Source: Patescibacteria group bacterium (lineage in GTDB: Bacteria > Patescibacteriota > Minisyncoccia > Phycocordibacterales > PALSA-1337). Taken from it: a stretch of 64,000 nt of DNA. The stretch lies in the NCBI GenBank assembly GCA_024654575.1, contig JANLHG010000014.1:88745-152744 (forward strand). Reading direction: 5' to 3'. Below are positions 36,963 to 47,444 of this stretch, in pieces; position 1 is the first letter of the stretch, and every line of letters starts with the position of its first letter. The notes under the pieces are model-generated. The model made no database searches. It was not told the DNA's origin and worked only from the letters and a program-made list of their open reading frames with translations. The position numbers and the translations under genes were made by a program.

Positions 36963-37053
36963 AATTATGTACTAACTATACTAGGTTAGTATACCATGTA
37001 TTGCTATTGATTTAAATTTATAATTACGATAGTATATTAAAAGTAGGTTAAAT

Positions 37054-37353
37054 AGCGGGATAGAGTAACAGTAATTCGCAAGGCTCAATTTGGGCTCATT
37101 TCTTAGTAATAAGATATTGATATTTCGTCAAAGTCGGTGAAACCTATTTTTAAAATGATTGGTAATACCGAGCCAAGTTCTAATTTTTATTAGAAAAGGT
37201 GTAGAGACTAGACGGCGAACATCCTGAGTAGTAATTACGAAGGATGAAGGTATAGTCCAGACCACAAATTTGTTATTATGTAGCAAAGCGATGCAAATCG
37301 TAGCGGTAAGCATAACCTTGAGATCTGGGTGCGACTCCCGGTCCCGCAACCAC
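37054..37353 (+). ncRNA. Structured RNA with a tRNA-like 3' domain (T-arm, acceptor, ACCA); candidate tmRNA (ssrA)
   Basis: The 3' end CTGGG-TGCGACT-CCCGG (T-arm) then TCCCGCA-A-CCA. A complementary 5' AGCGGGA lies at 37054-37060, followed by AATTCGCAAGG resembling the tmRNA GAUUCGACGGG element. CAAGG/CCTTG pairing brackets the body as a P2 helix would. The downstream hairpin with T-runs on both strands marks the transcript end. The ORFs called here in the six-frame track are rejected. Confidence 0.35.
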
Positions 37354-39107: not shown

Positions 39108-39111
39108 ATTT

Positions 39112-39848
39112 CCCGAAAGACGGTCTTTCGGGTATAATAGAAAGATGGGATATAGAAAGGTATCATTAATGGAGGGTGAATTTTACCATGTTTATAATCG
39201 TGGTAATAGTCGTCAAAGGATATTTTTTGACGATAATGATTATCGTCGCTTTATTAAATTACTTTATATTTGTAATTCCGTAAAGAAATTAGATTTTCGT
39301 GAAGATATAGTTGAAAAGAAAATCGATGTTTGGGATGTTGATCGAGAAAAAACATTAGTTTCAATAGGGGCGTGGGTTTTAATGCCTAATCATTTTCATA
39401 TCTACATTATTACTTCCCCAAAAGACGGTCTTTCGGGAGACTCAAAAGATAATAATATTACTATTTTTATGCGTAAACTTTGTACTGCTTATTCTAAATA
39501 CATTAATACAAAATATAAACGCACAGGTTCTCTTTTTGAGGGAAGATTTAAATCTGTCCATATTAGTGATGATATTCAAGCGAAATATCTTTTTTCGTAC
39601 ATTCATTTAAATGCCGTGAAATTAATTGACAAAAATTGGAAAATAAACGGTATAAAAAATTGGACGAAGGTCAAAAAGTTTCTAGAGAATTATAAATGGT
39701 CAAGCTATTTAGATTATAAAAAAGTTGTTCGTCATGAAAATAATATTTTAAATATAGAAGCATTTCCAAGTTATTTTAAAAATATAAAAGATTTCAATAC
39801 TGAAATAAATGATTGGCTTATGTAGTTCCCGAAAGACCGTCTTTTGGG
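39112..39848 (+). mobile_element. IS200/IS605-like (RAYT-type) Y1-transposase element flanked by REP-like hairpins CCCGAAAGAC(G/C)GTCTTT(C/T)GGG; a third copy lies in-frame inside the gene
   Basis: Hairpins at 39112-39132, 39416-39437 (intragenic, encoding PKDGLSG) and 39828-39848. Confidence 0.6.
39145..39825 (+). CDS. IS200-like / REP-associated tyrosine (Y1, HuH) transposase
   Basis: EFYHVYNRGNSRQRIFFDDNDYRRF...WVLMPNHFHIYI (HuH motif)...YSKYINTKYKRTGSLFEGRFKSVHISDD...YIHLN (catalytic-Tyr region). Confidence 0.7.
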   Translation: MGYRKVSLMEGEFYHVYNRGNSRQRIFFDDNDYRRFIKLLYICNSVKKLDFREDIVEKKIDVWDVDREKTLVSIGAWVLMPNHFHIYIITSPKDGLSGDSKDNNITIFMRKLCTAYSKYINTKYKRTGSLFEGRFKSVHISDDIQAKYLFSYIHLNAVKLIDKNWKINGIKNWTKVKKFLENYKWSSYLDYKKVVRHENNILNIEAFPSYFKNIKDFNTEINDWLM

Positions 39849-39914
39849 ACTGAAGTTCGTTCGGCATGGGGGGTGGCTCAGGTTACATATATTTGCTATT
39901 CTGTAATTATCTTT

Positions 39915-41498: not shown

Positions 41499-42425
41499 AT
41501 GATTTGGACTTCAATCAAAAGAATATGTAAATCAGGATTTATTAATTTTTGGAGAAACGGTTTCGTTTCGTTTGCTTCTGTTTTGGTGGTAGTAATGTCT
41601 CTATTTGTTTTTGAAGCATTGATATTTTTTAGTATTCTCGGGGGTGTTTATATAAATCAAATTAAAGATAAAGTTGATGTTAATGTTTATTTCGCTACTA
41701 ATGCTTCAGAACAAGATGTTTTAGTATTAAAAAAATCAATTGAAAGTTTACCGGAAGTAGCGAAAGTTGAGTATGTCTCTAGAGACCAATCTTTGATAGA
41801 TTTTAAAGCAAGACATTCAGATGATGAATTAACTATTCAAGGATTAAATGAACTGGGTTTAAACCCATTTCCAGCTGCACTTAATATAAAAGCCAAAGAT
41901 ACTTCTCAATATGGAAGTGTGGCAAAGTTTCTAGAAAGTAAAAATGCTTTGACTAAAAATGGCTCGACTATTATTGAGAGTATAAATTATAATAAAAATA
42001 AATTGATTATAGACCGTCTAATTAAAATTTTAGATTCCTTGAATAAATTAGGTGTAGCCATAACTTCTATTTTAATTTTTATTGCTATCGCTATAACTTT
42101 CAATACTATACGCCTTAGTATTTATGCTTCTCGTGAAGAAATCGGAGTAATGAAATTGGTTGGAGCAAGTAATAAATATGTTCGTGGACCGTTTGTAGTT
42201 TCCGGTATTATGTATGGGCTTATATCATCATTTATCACTCTGATTATTTTTTATCCCACAGTGTATTATTTAGGCACTATTACCAATAACTTTTCCTCTG
42301 ATGTTAATTTAGTAAATTATTACATTATTAATTTTGGTCAAATTTTTTTGATTATCACTGGATCAGGTATTCTTCTAGGGGCAATCTCTAGCTATTTAGC
42401 AGTAAGGAGGTATTTGAAAGTATGA
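41499..42425 (+). CDS. ftsX: Cell division permease-like protein FtsX
   Basis: Four-TM FtsX topology with a periplasmic domain. Confidence 0.8.
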   Translation: MIWTSIKRICKSGFINFWRNGFVSFASVLVVVMSLFVFEALIFFSILGGVYINQIKDKVDVNVYFATNASEQDVLVLKKSIESLPEVAKVEYVSRDQSLIDFKARHSDDELTIQGLNELGLNPFPAALNIKAKDTSQYGSVAKFLESKNALTKNGSTIIESINYNKNKLIIDRLIKILDSLNKLGVAITSILIFIAIAITFNTIRLSIYASREEIGVMKLVGASNKYVRGPFVVSGIMYGLISSFITLIIFYPTVYYLGTITNNFSSDVNLVNYYIINFGQIFLIITGSGILLGAISSYLAVRRYLKV

Positions 42426-44772: not shown

Positions 44773-46239
44773 ATGAAAACGTTTTATATCACAACCACAT
44801 TACCATATGTGAATGCTCCTCTCCATATCGGGCATGCACTTGAGCTTGTGCGTGCAGATGTTATAGCTCGTTATAAAAAACTTACAGGATATGATGTTTA
44901 TTTTAACACAGGAACTGACGAGCATGGTCTTAAAATATATGAAAAAGCTAAGGAAAAAGGTTTAAGTGTACAGGATTTTGTTGACCAAGGGTTTGCAACT
45001 TTTAAAAATCAATTAGAAATGTTTGGTGTGACTAAAGATGTTCATTTTGTTCGTACTACCGATAAACACCACATAGAATCAGCTCAACATTTTTGGAAAC
45101 TTGTTGAAAAGAATGGTTTTATGTATAAAAAAGATTATGAATCTAAGTATTGTATTGGTTGTGAAAGTGAAAAAACAGATTCCGAATTAAAGAATGACGA
45201 ATGTGTAGAACACCCAGGAGCAAAAGTTTCTGTAATTAAAGAAGAGAATTATTTTTTTAAATACTCGGTCTTTGGAGATAAACTCTTGGATTTTTATGAA
45301 AAAAATCTAAATTTTATTGTTCCAGATTTTCGTTTTAATGAGATAAAAACATTTGTAAAAACAGGTTTGCAAGATTTTTCTATCTCTAGATTGAAGTCAA
45401 AAATGCCTTGGGGTATTGAAGTTCCGGGGGATAAAGAACAAGTAATGTATGTATGGTTTGATGCTTTGATTAATTATATTTCCACTTTGGGCTGGCCGGA
45501 AGATATGAAAACTTTTGAAAAATATTGGGTAAATGGAAACTCTACTCAGTATTGTGGAAAAGACAATACTCGTTTCCAGGGTGCTATGTGGCAAGCTATG
45601 CTTTTTGCCGCTGGAGTTCCTAATTCACATAAAATAGTTGTCAATGGTTTTATTACTGGTGATAGGGGTATTAAGATGTCTAAATCTATCGGTGACGTGA
45701 TAAACCCGTGTGACATTGTCAAAGAATACGGCACAGATGCTTTACGATATTTCCTTTTGCGAGAGATTTCTAGTTTTGAAGACAGTCCGTTTACAATGGA
45801 GAGATTCAAAGATGCTTACAATGCGAATTTGGCGAATGGTTTGGGGAATTTGGTTTCAAGAGTAATGAAAATGGCTACGACCAACAATATAACTATTGAT
45901 AAATTTCCAACCTATAAACAAGCATTAGAAGTTGATACTGAAGACATGGTACGCTTTTCTGACTCAATAGAAAAATTTGATATTAAACTTGCTATGGATC
46001 TATTATGGACACGCATACAAATTATGGATAAATTGATACAATTAGAACAACCGTTTAAATTACTGAAAAGCAAGAAGACAGAAACAAAAGGAATTCAATG
46101 TATCAAAGATATTCTTGTTGGTGTTTATCAGGTTGCGTTACTATTAGAGCCTATGATGCCTAGTACTGCTATTGAAGTTCAAAGACTTATCCAAGAAAAT
46201 AAAATGCCAGAGAAGCCATTGTTTTTGAGGAGGGAGTAA
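44773..46239 (+). CDS. metG: Methionyl-tRNA synthetase (compact form)
   Basis: HIGH-type motif PYVNAPLHIGHA, a Cys-rich knuckle and KMSKS. Confidence 0.9.
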   Translation: MKTFYITTTLPYVNAPLHIGHALELVRADVIARYKKLTGYDVYFNTGTDEHGLKIYEKAKEKGLSVQDFVDQGFATFKNQLEMFGVTKDVHFVRTTDKHHIESAQHFWKLVEKNGFMYKKDYESKYCIGCESEKTDSELKNDECVEHPGAKVSVIKEENYFFKYSVFGDKLLDFYEKNLNFIVPDFRFNEIKTFVKTGLQDFSISRLKSKMPWGIEVPGDKEQVMYVWFDALINYISTLGWPEDMKTFEKYWVNGNSTQYCGKDNTRFQGAMWQAMLFAAGVPNSHKIVVNGFITGDRGIKMSKSIGDVINPCDIVKEYGTDALRYFLLREISSFEDSPFTMERFKDAYNANLANGLGNLVSRVMKMATTNNITIDKFPTYKQALEVDTEDMVRFSDSIEKFDIKLAMDLLWTRIQIMDKLIQLEQPFKLLKSKKTETKGIQCIKDILVGVYQVALLLEPMMPSTAIEVQRLIQENKMPEKPLFLRRE

Positions 46240-46685
46240 GAACCTCACCCCCAACCCCTCTCCTTAATAAGGAGAGGGGGGTCCAAACTCAAATTATTAT
46301 ATGACTATTTTCTATAATAAATCAAAAAATTTAACTAAGCGGATTTTATTAAGACGCTCTCAAACGCCTCAAGAGACAATACTGTGGGGTAAGATTAGAG
46401 ATAATCAATTGGGTTTCAAAATAAAAAGACAATATTCTGTTGGACCATATGTTTTGGATTTTTATTGTTCTTCAAAAAAGTTAGCTATTGAAATAGATGG
46501 CTCGCAACATATAAAGGAGAAAGAATATGATATTGAACGGTCAGAATATTTGTCTATATTTGGTATAAAAGTAATTCGTTTTTGGAATAATGAAGTTAAT
46601 GTTAATATTGAGGGTGTAATATTAAAAATTGTGAATGAATTGAATTCACCCTCTCCTTATTAAGGAGAGGGTAGGGTGAGGTTCT
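46240..46685. mobile_element. Cassette bounded by roughly 40-bp inverted repeats (each ending in the palindrome CCTCTCCTTAATAAGGAGAGG) carrying a DUF559 gene; inserted between metG and tatD
   Basis: Left end GAACCTCACCCCCAACCCCTCTCCTTAATAAGGAGAGGGG. The reverse complement of the right end is GAACCTCACCCTACCCTCTCCTTAATAAGGAGAGGG. Confidence 0.5.
46301..46663 (+). CDS. DUF559 (Vsr/restriction-endonuclease-like fold) protein
   Basis: LRRSQTPQETILWGKIRDNQLGFKIKRQYSVGPYVLDFYC...LAIEIDGSQH...VIRFWNNEV matches the DUF559 pattern. Confidence 0.75.
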   Translation: MTIFYNKSKNLTKRILLRRSQTPQETILWGKIRDNQLGFKIKRQYSVGPYVLDFYCSSKKLAIEIDGSQHIKEKEYDIERSEYLSIFGIKVIRFWNNEVNVNIEGVILKIVNELNSPSPY

Positions 46686-46694
46686 TGAGTTATT

Positions 46695-47444
46695 ATGACT
46701 TCTAAATACATAGACATACACAGCCACGTAAACTTCAAAGCCTTTGACGAAGATAGGGAAACGGTTATTGGGCGTGCATTAGATAATAATATTTGGATGA
46801 TAAATGTTGGAACAGATTTAGAAACTTCAAAAAAAGCCATTGATATCGCTGGGCAATATAAAAAAGGAATTTATGCGACTATTGGATTACACCCTACGCA
46901 TACGGGAGAAATTTTTGATATTGATACTTATCTAAATATTGCAAAGAATAATAAAGTAGTAGCTATTGGAGAATGTGGGTTGGATTATAAGGAGGGGAAG
47001 CAAGAAGGACAGAAGGATATTTTTATAAAACACATAGAATTAGCGAATGAGGTTAGTAAACCTTTGATGTTGCATATAAGGGAGGCATATAAAGATGCGA
47101 TCGAGATTCTTAAGAGATATGCAAAGGTTAAGGGTAATGTTCATTTTTTTGCTGGTACAATAGAGGAAGCAAAACAATTTTTGGAACTCGGTTTTACCCT
47201 TTCTTTTACTGGAGTAATTACTTTTGCTAAACAGTATCAAGAGTTGGTTGAGTACATTCCGCTGGATATGATGATGTCGGAGACAGATTGCCCATTTGTA
47301 ACGCCAATTCCTTATCGAGGAGAAAGAAATGAGCCATTATATGTTCAGGAAGTTGTTAAAAAAATTGCAGAGATAAAAAATATGAACATAGATTTAGTAA
47401 AAAAACAACTAGTTGAGAATGCTTTTAAAAGTTTCCATTTTTGA
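46695..47444 (+). CDS. tatD: TatD family hydrolase/DNase
   Basis: IDIHSHVNF...GECGLDY...HIREA... Confidence 0.85.
   Translation: MTSKYIDIHSHVNFKAFDEDRETVIGRALDNNIWMINVGTDLETSKKAIDIAGQYKKGIYATIGLHPTHTGEIFDIDTYLNIAKNNKVVAIGECGLDYKEGKQEGQKDIFIKHIELANEVSKPLMLHIREAYKDAIEILKRYAKVKGNVHFFAGTIEEAKQFLELGFTLSFTGVITFAKQYQELVEYIPLDMMMSETDCPFVTPIPYRGERNEPLYVQEVVKKIAEIKNMNIDLVKKQLVENAFKSFHF

Follow-up and report, generated by a model that had tools for sequence, protein, structure and literature searches.

In the 64,000-nt stretch of DNA analysed here from a Patescibacteria group bacterium (contig JANLHG010000014.1 of GenBank assembly GCA_024654575.1, positions 88,745 to 152,744 of the forward strand; hereafter the window), the segment 46238-46686, between the metG and tatD genes, is very probably a self-contained, horizontally mobile cassette. 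It holds a single gene, for a predicted nuclease of the DUF559 family, and is bracketed by inverted copies of a short three-block repeat, here called the triplex motif (TM). Co-location of DUF559 genes with such motifs is pan-bacterial and highly specific. We hold this reading as a whole with moderate confidence; that the nuclease would act on its cognate TMs, moving or copying the segment that they bound, is about an even proposition. The locus is composed as follows.

44773..46239, + strand: metG (methionyl-tRNA synthetase), the 5' boundary gene; open reading frame (ORF) matching Pfam tRNA-synt_1g, E 6.7e-94
46238..46279, + strand: left TM, head-hairpin orientation; from inverted-repeat comparison, fold and triad scoring
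46238-46250: outer inverted-repeat arm of the left TM, AAGAACCTCACCC
46241-46251: third-strand block of the left TM, given as its C-rich complement AACCTCACCCC; then the loop CAA
46255-46279: hairpin of the left TM, CCCCTCTCCTT-AAT-AAGGAGAGGGG
46280..46300, + strand: spacer or leader from the left TM to the DUF559 start codon; read from the sequence
46301..46663, + strand: gene for the DUF559 / Vsr-fold PD-(D/E)XK-type nuclease, 120 aa; PF04480, E 1.5e-33
46648..46686, + strand: right TM, hairpin-head orientation; from inverted-repeat comparison, fold and triad scoring
46648-46672: hairpin of the right TM, ACCCTCTCCTT-ATT-AAGGAGAGGGT
46674-46683: G-rich third strand of the right TM, GGGTGAGGTT, preceded by a 2-nt loop
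46674-46686: outer inverted-repeat arm of the right TM, GGGTGAGGTTCTT
46695..47444, + strand: tatD (TatD-family hydrolase), the 3' boundary gene; ORF matching Pfam TatD_DNase, E 1.2e-74

A first-pass annotation had described this segment as a DUF559 gene within a compact mobile cassette closed by inverted repeats of about 40 nt. Its coordinates and sequences are correct and the repeats at both ends are confirmed; the outer arms AAGAACCTCACCC and GGGTGAGGTTCTT are complementary at 13 of 13 positions, and the inner 23-mers (46256-46278 and 46649-46671) are 100% complementary. The inner element, described there as a perfect palindrome, has an 11-bp stem and also a 3-nt loop, and the 21-mer is not identical to its reverse complement, the central base being different. 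The boundaries needed small adjustments. The metG stop codon TAA occupies 46237-46239 and the tatD ATG stands at 46695; the left repeat had been started at the last base of the stop codon, but GAACCTCACCC begins one base after it, and the extended repeat (AAGAACC...) takes in the last two stop bases, while the right repeat, said to end 9 nt before tatD, ends 8-10 nt from the ATG depending on the end drawn. The annotation was right that the protein's C-terminus NSPSPY comes from the right repeat, being encoded by the 5' arm and loop of its hairpin: the right TM overlaps the last 16 nt of the DUF559 ORF, and the final five codons (SPSPY) and the stop fall in that hairpin.

Chance is excluded as the source of the repeat pair, as the 21-mer has two sites only in 64 kb and none in 100 shuffles. 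GAACCTCACCC has the same two sites only and is weak evidence when taken alone, because two matches were reached in 2 of 100 shuffles. The repeats matched no RNA family in Rfam, either at the gathering threshold or at E up to 5 on 46150-46780. A terminator scan of the window cassette found no terminator-like site, and promoter-like matches in the cassette were not above those in shuffles (8 vs 4.8 +/- 2.4). The A-rich ..CTCAAAT.. stretch of the 46280..46300 spacer is also present in related cassettes.

Each repeat consists of three blocks: pyrimidine and purine arms that pair with each other and, 2-3 bases further on, a third block. Both hairpins (46255-46279 and 46648-46672) have a perfect 11-bp stem and a 3-nt loop, and the right unit reads CCCTCTCCTT-ATT-AAGGAGAGGG-TA-GGGTGAGGTT on the G-rich strand. 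The third block lies antiparallel to the purine arm, with G opposite G, or A or T opposite A, at each position, which gives 11 of 11 allowed purine-motif triads for the left unit (minus strand) and 10 of 10 for the right. Folded as single-stranded DNA, the hairpins reach -12.3 kcal/mol (left, z -3.0) and -11.3 kcal/mol (right, z -4.3), with z ranging overall from -2.4 to -4.5. Under the general ITxF definition, blocks 1 and 2 pair as a Watson-Crick hairpin with a stem of 6-15, short loops and no more than one mismatch, and the third block, antiparallel to the purine arm, forms the triads G*G:C, A*A:T and T*A:T; the window repeats agree with it in both the hairpin and the third-block triads.

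A repeat of this kind is known from E. coli, where BoxC was renamed the PIT (potential intrastrand triplex) element and then TMECO (Holder et al. 2015, PMC4666352). Triplex formation by the TMECO G-rich strand was examined by circular dichroism, nuclear magnetic resonance and UV melting in that paper. The strict TMECO pattern is CCCTCNCCC-N3-6-GGGNGAGGG-N3-GGGNGAGGG (PMC4666352); the right unit of the window, CCCTCTCCT-TATTA-AGGAGAGGG-TA-GGGTGAGGT, falls outside it, in that each block has a single A/T substitution at its inner end and the second loop is 2 nt. As judged from these patterns, the window TMs are almost certainly low-GC relatives of BoxC/PIT/TMECO and not strict members.

The association of gene and motif extends well beyond this window. 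A DUF559 profile search provided 80 loci, 74 of them with enough flank (L-numbers such as L001 are the labels of compared loci). Pyrimidine-armed hairpins flank DUF559 on both sides in 65 of the 74, at a density of 4.4 per kb near the gene vs 0.18 per kb elsewhere, and 56% of the hairpins have at least nine allowed triads to the adjacent third block, vs 1.2% in shuffled flanks. As an unbiased control, the TM detector was run on the whole 64-kb window and returned exactly two motifs, both flanking DUF559; the same detector returned none in 140 kb of TatD-selected related loci without DUF559. The hosts in which the pairing is found include Patescibacteria, Alphaproteobacteria, Gallionella, Sideroxydans, Deinococcus and Chloroflexus, and it is also present on a cyanobacterial plasmid. 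A three-way covariation table was set aside as evidence, because its units had been chosen for at least eight triads and the table is biased by that choice; the shuffled flanks are the valid control.

Neither this pan-bacterial pairing nor the three-block intrastrand-triplex nature of the repeats had been recognised in the first-pass annotation, whose core idea was nevertheless largely right. The search for other copies that it proposed finds the palindrome and the terminal repeat to be unique to this locus within the 64 kb, and related cassettes carry repeats too; its own grounds for abandoning the idea, unique repeats together with relatives that have the same arrangement without repeats, do not apply, as the relatives' arrangement includes repeats.

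The loci fall into more than one architecture: third blocks lie outside the gene in 14 loci, including the window and most of its closest relatives, and inside, adjoining the gene, in 23. TM singlets and inverted doublets (head-hairpin-spacer-hairpin-head) without a gene are present in several genomes (e.g. L011, L026, L031, L072), and dispersed TM copies occur in other DUF559-bearing genomes. Some genomes have several cassettes. Contig CAYHBT010000005.1 carries two, 4.8 kb apart (L001 and L008), one at the metG-tatD site and one upstream of the M16 peptidase gene, with distinct proteins that each have their own motif variant (CCTCTCC/GGTGAGG vs CCTCCCC/GGTGGGG). A second metagenome-assembled genome (MAG) has the same two-cassette pattern (L004, L073), and a third has three DUF559 copies with different motifs (L025, L026, L041).

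The window protein scores 115 bits against PF04480 (cutoff 20.6), and its sequence matches PDB entry 3HRL (E 2.6e-26). When an AlphaFold model (pLDDT 79.5) was searched with Foldseek, 3HRL was the top match (E 6e-7), followed by the Vsr-like homing endonuclease I-Bth0305I (probability 0.99, target-normalised TM-score 0.64, ~20% identity) and the nuclease domains of PvuRts1I and AbaSI, with E. coli Vsr weaker (probability 0.66). An alignment of 27 sequences has 36 invariant columns, among them D53, E64, D66, Q69, H70, R93, W95 and N96, and D53, E64, D66 and H70 are consistent with a candidate active site. A dN/dS of 0.07-0.10 indicates purifying selection, and these features together are consistent with a functional nuclease, as predicted from sequence and model. 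The nearest homologues are in Patescibacteria MAGs, and the C-terminal tails of homologues (PSP*, NPLLNKERVG and TPLLSKERGRGEV) are one hairpin read in different frames. Foldseek also matched the model to several large-subunit proteins of the Toxoplasma and Tetrahymena mitochondrial ribosomes, with probability ~1.0 and low identity, which suggests that DUF559-like domains may have been recruited into mitoribosomes.

Comparison with related loci shows the cassette to be a discrete block. It is 86% identical in DNA to that of L001, where the flanks are 65-68% identical, and in the window comparisons the cassette is 82-86% and the flanks 62-68% identical. The similarity between the window and L001 starts exactly at TAAGAACCTCACC, the end of the left repeat, despite a different upstream gene; on the right side the boundary is less clear, as moderate similarity runs on into the conserved start of tatD. 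The synonymous distance dS of DUF559 is 0.78 (L001) and 0.92 (L002), while for metG, tatD and the permease gene the proportion of synonymous differences (pS) is 0.71-0.81, which is saturated; by these distances the cassette is to be considered younger than its hosts. In metG, L001 groups with L016, L023 and L025 (68-70% identity) and is only 49% identical to the window; in DUF559 its identity is 89% with the window and 55-56% with those three, which carry another motif variant at the metG-tatD site. The DUF559 and metG trees conflict in a way that indicates horizontal exchange of the cassette. Relatives at 78-83% identity occupy unrelated sites, at pth/dnaE and near uvrA. With two weak matches in 50,697 phage records and 39 matches on plasmids or chromids, mostly non-mobilizable, there is no obvious vector. 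The description of the segment as a mobile cassette is upheld by the discrete block, the horizontal exchange and the close relatives at other sites; of the kinds of unit that had been offered for it, the MITE-like one (miniature inverted-repeat transposable element) and homing in its classical form fit poorly.

The metG-tatD junction shows several states of insertion. Gene order in these bacteria is conserved as M16 peptidase, permease, metG, tatD, and the site is a hotspot of cassette occupation and cargo gain. It is empty in L084, L096, L107 and L108, where stop and start are 0-15 nt apart, which bears out the reading of an insertion into a tight gap; the comparison with empty sites proposed at the outset thus found them, in distant relatives only (TatD ~40% identical). 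A solo TM occupies it in L012, starting right at the metG stop like the left TM of the window. The complete TM-DUF559-TM unit is present in the window and L118, and the cassette is accompanied by a cargo gene in L001, L002 and L112. The cargo, placed between metG and DUF559, is a nucleotidyltransferase gene (L001 3461-3934), a glyoxalase-family gene (L002 3621-3986) or a peptidase S51 gene (L112 2324-2944); it is bracketed by two direct motif copies in L001 and lies inside the inverted pair in L002. The distance from the end of the right TM to the tatD ATG is a few to ~25 nt in every occupied locus examined, and all ten occupied metG-tatD loci examined have the same DUF559 orientation. No empty site in a close relative came out of the one metagenome scan made with TatD, whose hits were all distant (at most 58% identity). 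The cassette contains no ORF other than DUF559 (120 aa) and no transposase of known class.

Two analogies were considered for this site and its neighbourhood and were dropped. The position of cargo between repeat units had prompted a comparison with integron attC sites, which was given up because the locus tables examined contain no integrase. A DUF559 cassette sits just upstream of the M16 gene in L006, L008 and L012, and the ftsX/M16 junction of the window, a tight one where ftsX (41499-42425) runs 4 nt into the start of the M16 peptidase gene (42422-42425), was tried as the empty counterpart of these insertions; it is not a clean allele pair, because the upstream synteny differs.

The pairing extends to E. 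coli K-12, where the product of ycjD is a DUF559 protein. The C-terminus of YcjD, RSPSP*, is encoded by a degenerate, motif-like pyrimidine arm, and the spacer between ycjD and fabI downstream contains a canonical motif, CCCCTCGCCCCTCTGGGGAGAGGGTTAGGGTGAGGGG. This motif is TMECO no. 9, listed at 167 nt from ycjD in the supplementary table of Holder et al. (PMC4666352), whose text mentions neither ycjD nor an endonuclease, and which states that no transposase, integrase or other mobility function has ever been found near these motifs. In the K-12 locus (L119, NC_000913.3, 1351040-1351840) the ycjD 3' end is partly duplicated in the interval from the gene to TMECO no. 9, and a perfect 17-bp inverted repeat, TCACCTCATTCTGACAA/TTGTCAGAATGAGGTGA, stands directly upstream of the ycjD start codon. 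The gene is present in 3,378 of 5,426 complete E. coli genomes, in phylogroups A, B1 and C plus ST69 and ST182 (PMC12817139). The repeat has a median of ~20 places per E. coli genome; Salmonella is reported to be without TMECO, and Enterobacter and Microcystis are TM-rich. In an evenly spaced sample of 59 E. coli chromosomes, genomes with ycjD had 16-30 TM places (mean 23.4, n=37) and those without it a median of 5 (range 2-23, n=22). This correlation is suggestive, and it is confounded by phylogroup.

We propose that the DUF559 nuclease may recognise its cognate TMs and nick or cut there, probably where single-stranded or supercoiled DNA lets a TM fold out into a hairpin or a purine-motif triplex. 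The segment bounded by the TMs would then be copied or moved in the course of repair or recombination at these sites, pre-existing solo TMs could serve as landing pads, and neighbouring genes that come to lie between TMs might occasionally be captured and travel as cargo. That DUF559 has a specific enzymatic role at TMs is, in our judgement, close to an even proposition. Pairing from candidate-phyla bacteria to E. coli points to DUF559 as the missing protein partner of the repeat, and we put forward, tentatively, that it may be the long-missing partner of the BoxC/PIT/intrastrand-triplex repeats, driving their spread, maintenance or local rearrangement.

Several observations weigh against this proposal. 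Binding or cutting of TMs by DUF559 is a prediction for every member of the family. By eye, there is no consistent target-site duplication at the six cassette ends inspected (window, L001, L004, L114, L116, L118), and neither an excision product nor a circular junction was observed. The two architectures could not both be accounted for by one transposition geometry. The 64 kb of the window contain no dispersed TMs and give no sign of ongoing spread within this genome. Left and right repeats of a locus match at 0.77 vs 0.64 between loci, and because this excess is only modest we do not use left/right matching as a main argument. Ordinary homologous recombination, exchanging a linked block between relatives, could also account for the recurrence at one junction. 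Stable triplex was seen neither in duplex DNA nor in vivo (Holder et al., PMC4666352). Finally, O157:H7 lacks ycjD and retains ~15 TM copies; TMs persist in such lineages, and the nuclease is therefore not needed to keep them.

The alternative that survives best, though we think it unlikely, is that DUF559 is a domesticated host nuclease, not mobile, which processes or regulates triplex or hairpin repeats. TMs would then gather through local action of the enzyme, or as operators, promoter or mRNA-stability elements, and apparent mobility would reflect recombination between relatives. There is usually one DUF559 copy, at a site conserved across a clade, and the protein is under strong purifying selection; many loci have the G-rich third strand ~8-20 nt upstream of a start codon, or followed by TATAAT, and these are possible expression signals; and RAYTs, the nearest analogue, are described as single-copy domesticated genes in PMC5581495. 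Such a nuclease is hard to reconcile with the tree conflict and with two cassette lineages at one site in related hosts, with a cassette dS far below that of the flanks, and with close relatives at unrelated sites. The regulatory variant is further countered by the lack of a terminator-like site in the window cassette and by earlier work, cited in PMC4666352, in which PIT/TM elements had neither promoter nor terminator activity.

Less probable still is a free-standing homing endonuclease that cuts the empty metG-tatD junction, for example at the tatD start, and is copied by double-strand-break repair, with repeats that are incidental or regulatory. Repeated occupation of one tight housekeeping junction in divergent hosts, always directly upstream of tatD, would suit it, as would the conservation of the first ~25 nt of tatD in DNA across hosts, the structural match to I-Bth0305I and the presence/absence polymorphism at a conserved site (empty, solo-TM and occupied, the empty state only in distant relatives). 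On the left, however, similarity begins at the repeat end beside a different gene, which leaves no visible sign of a co-converted flank on that side. Across phyla the repeats and the gene are conserved together, as parts of the unit; there are relatives at other sites and TM units and doublets without a gene, and the protein is almost absent from phages. Homing of the classical type is thus a poor fit for the homing unit named as one option in the first-pass annotation.

A programmed-inversion or expression switch, in which the repeats flip the DUF559 segment, or pair the 5' and 3' ends of its mRNA, and so control a toxic nuclease, is very improbable. DUF559 and 'endonuclease domain-containing' proteins are enriched among predicted programmed-inversion targets (odds ratios 14.3 and 9.6), and the complementary terminal arms would pair in a transcript spanning both, but the single gene orientation at the occupied metG-tatD loci speaks against inversion, insertion polymorphism, horizontal transfer and the third-strand block are left unexplained, and RNA does not form purine-motif triplexes (PMC4666352). 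An ordinary very-short-patch mismatch-repair endonuclease serving a cytosine methyltransferase, with coincidental repeats, can be all but dismissed: databases do name homologues 'very-short-patch-repair endonuclease', and the Caulobacter DUF559 protein VsrA has been proposed for such repair, but metG and tatD are the neighbours and no methyltransferase is adjacent (the rest of the window was not searched for one), the repeat association is far beyond chance, and the gene behaves as an inserted and exchanged cassette.

We return to a TM-bracketed cassette whose nuclease would act on its own repeats. Both the class of repeat and the family of protein have been described before, and their pairing seems to be new; a literature search without most subscription journals found no paper linking DUF559 with BoxC/TM repeats, which amounts only to absence of evidence. 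Knowledge of BoxC/PIT/TM repeats in E. coli goes back to the 1990s; they are present in thousands of copies in hundreds of genomes and have previously been tied to local genome instability, with their origin and spread left unexplained, and DUF559 is a very large family of unknown function, such that the pairing gives repeat and family each a candidate function. It would also account for an insertion that is otherwise odd, in a conserved housekeeping operon of a bacterium with a reduced genome. If true, it would constitute a second REP-RAYT-like symbiosis (REP, repetitive extragenic palindromic) based on unrelated chemistry, with a Vsr-fold enzyme reading three-block hairpin or triplex DNA, and it suggests a new class of structure-recognising nuclease, selfish or domesticated. 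E. coli YcjD with its ~20 BoxC copies would be a directly testable model.

Two further elements of the window lie upstream of the cassette. A 226-aa ORF (39145-39825, + strand) has a weak IS200/Y1-transposase-like Pfam match (E 0.0066, below cutoff) and an HUH-like HFHIYI motif. The window contains exactly three copies of the 22-nt palindrome TCCCGAAAGACGGTCTTTCGGG, two of them flanking this ORF (39111-39132 and 39828-39849) and one within it (39417-39438); from its sequence, 39111-39849 resembles a locus of the REP/RAYT type and lies 7 kb from the DUF559 cassette. At 37053-37346, a tRNA-Leu(CAA)-like gene with the 5' half GCGGGATAGAGTAACAGTAATTCGCAAGGCTCAA and the 3' end ...GGGTGCGACTCCCGGTCCCGCAACCA appears to be interrupted by a group I intron (Rfam RF00028, 67 bits, 37076-37275); this tRNA is absent from the ARAGORN calls.

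Among known systems, the cassette shares with transposons bounded by terminal inverted repeats, and with MITEs, its small size, its intergenic position, ~40-nt terminal inverted repeats and the existence elsewhere of derivatives without a gene. It differs from them in having no transposase of a known class, no target-site duplication by eye and structured three-block ends, so that the earlier suggestion of generic MITE ends is rejected. E. coli Vsr and Caulobacter VsrA belong to the same superfamily, and VsrA has a DUF559 domain; the window gene differs in lacking an adjacent methyltransferase, in its weak structural match to Vsr and in its behaviour as a cassette. With I-Bth0305I it has in common a Vsr-like catalytic fold and a selfish-element lifestyle on conserved genes; the gene for that enzyme lies in a group I intron within a phage recA, whereas the window gene is free-standing, bracketed by repeats, ~20% identical in structural alignment and nearly absent from phages.

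The repeats themselves are closest to BoxC/PIT/TMECO. Both have a pyrimidine arm, a purine arm forming the hairpin and a G-rich mirror block with G*G:C, A*A:T and T*A:T triads; the right unit of the window is near TMECO no. 2, CCCTCTCCCTTGAGGGAGAGGGTTAGGGTGAGGGT; inverted pairs exist in E. coli too, with five in K-12 (PMC4666352); and the same source ties the elements to local genome rearrangement. The window variant differs in its low GC content, with A/T at inner stem positions and a second loop of 2-3 nt, in its Patescibacteria-like and not proteobacterial host, and in having two copies in 64 kb that bracket a nuclease gene, whereas published descriptions of the E. coli elements associate no mobility gene with them (PMC4666352).

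The closest parallel in organisation is with REP sequences, REPINs and their RAYT proteins (TnpA-REP, HUH Y1). In both, inverted copies of a short structured repeat stand on either side of one nuclease gene, the repeat is dispersed in other genomes as singlets and inverted doublets, and each gene lineage has its own repeat variant. The differences are that the window enzyme is of the Vsr-fold PD-(D/E)XK type with no Y1_Tnp match, that its repeat has a third, triplex-type block and not a GTAG-type head, and that the whole unit appears to move horizontally, its action on the repeat being predicted only. DUF559 may thus stand to BoxC/TM repeats as RAYT stands to REP/REPIN, with an unrelated fold and a different DNA structure.

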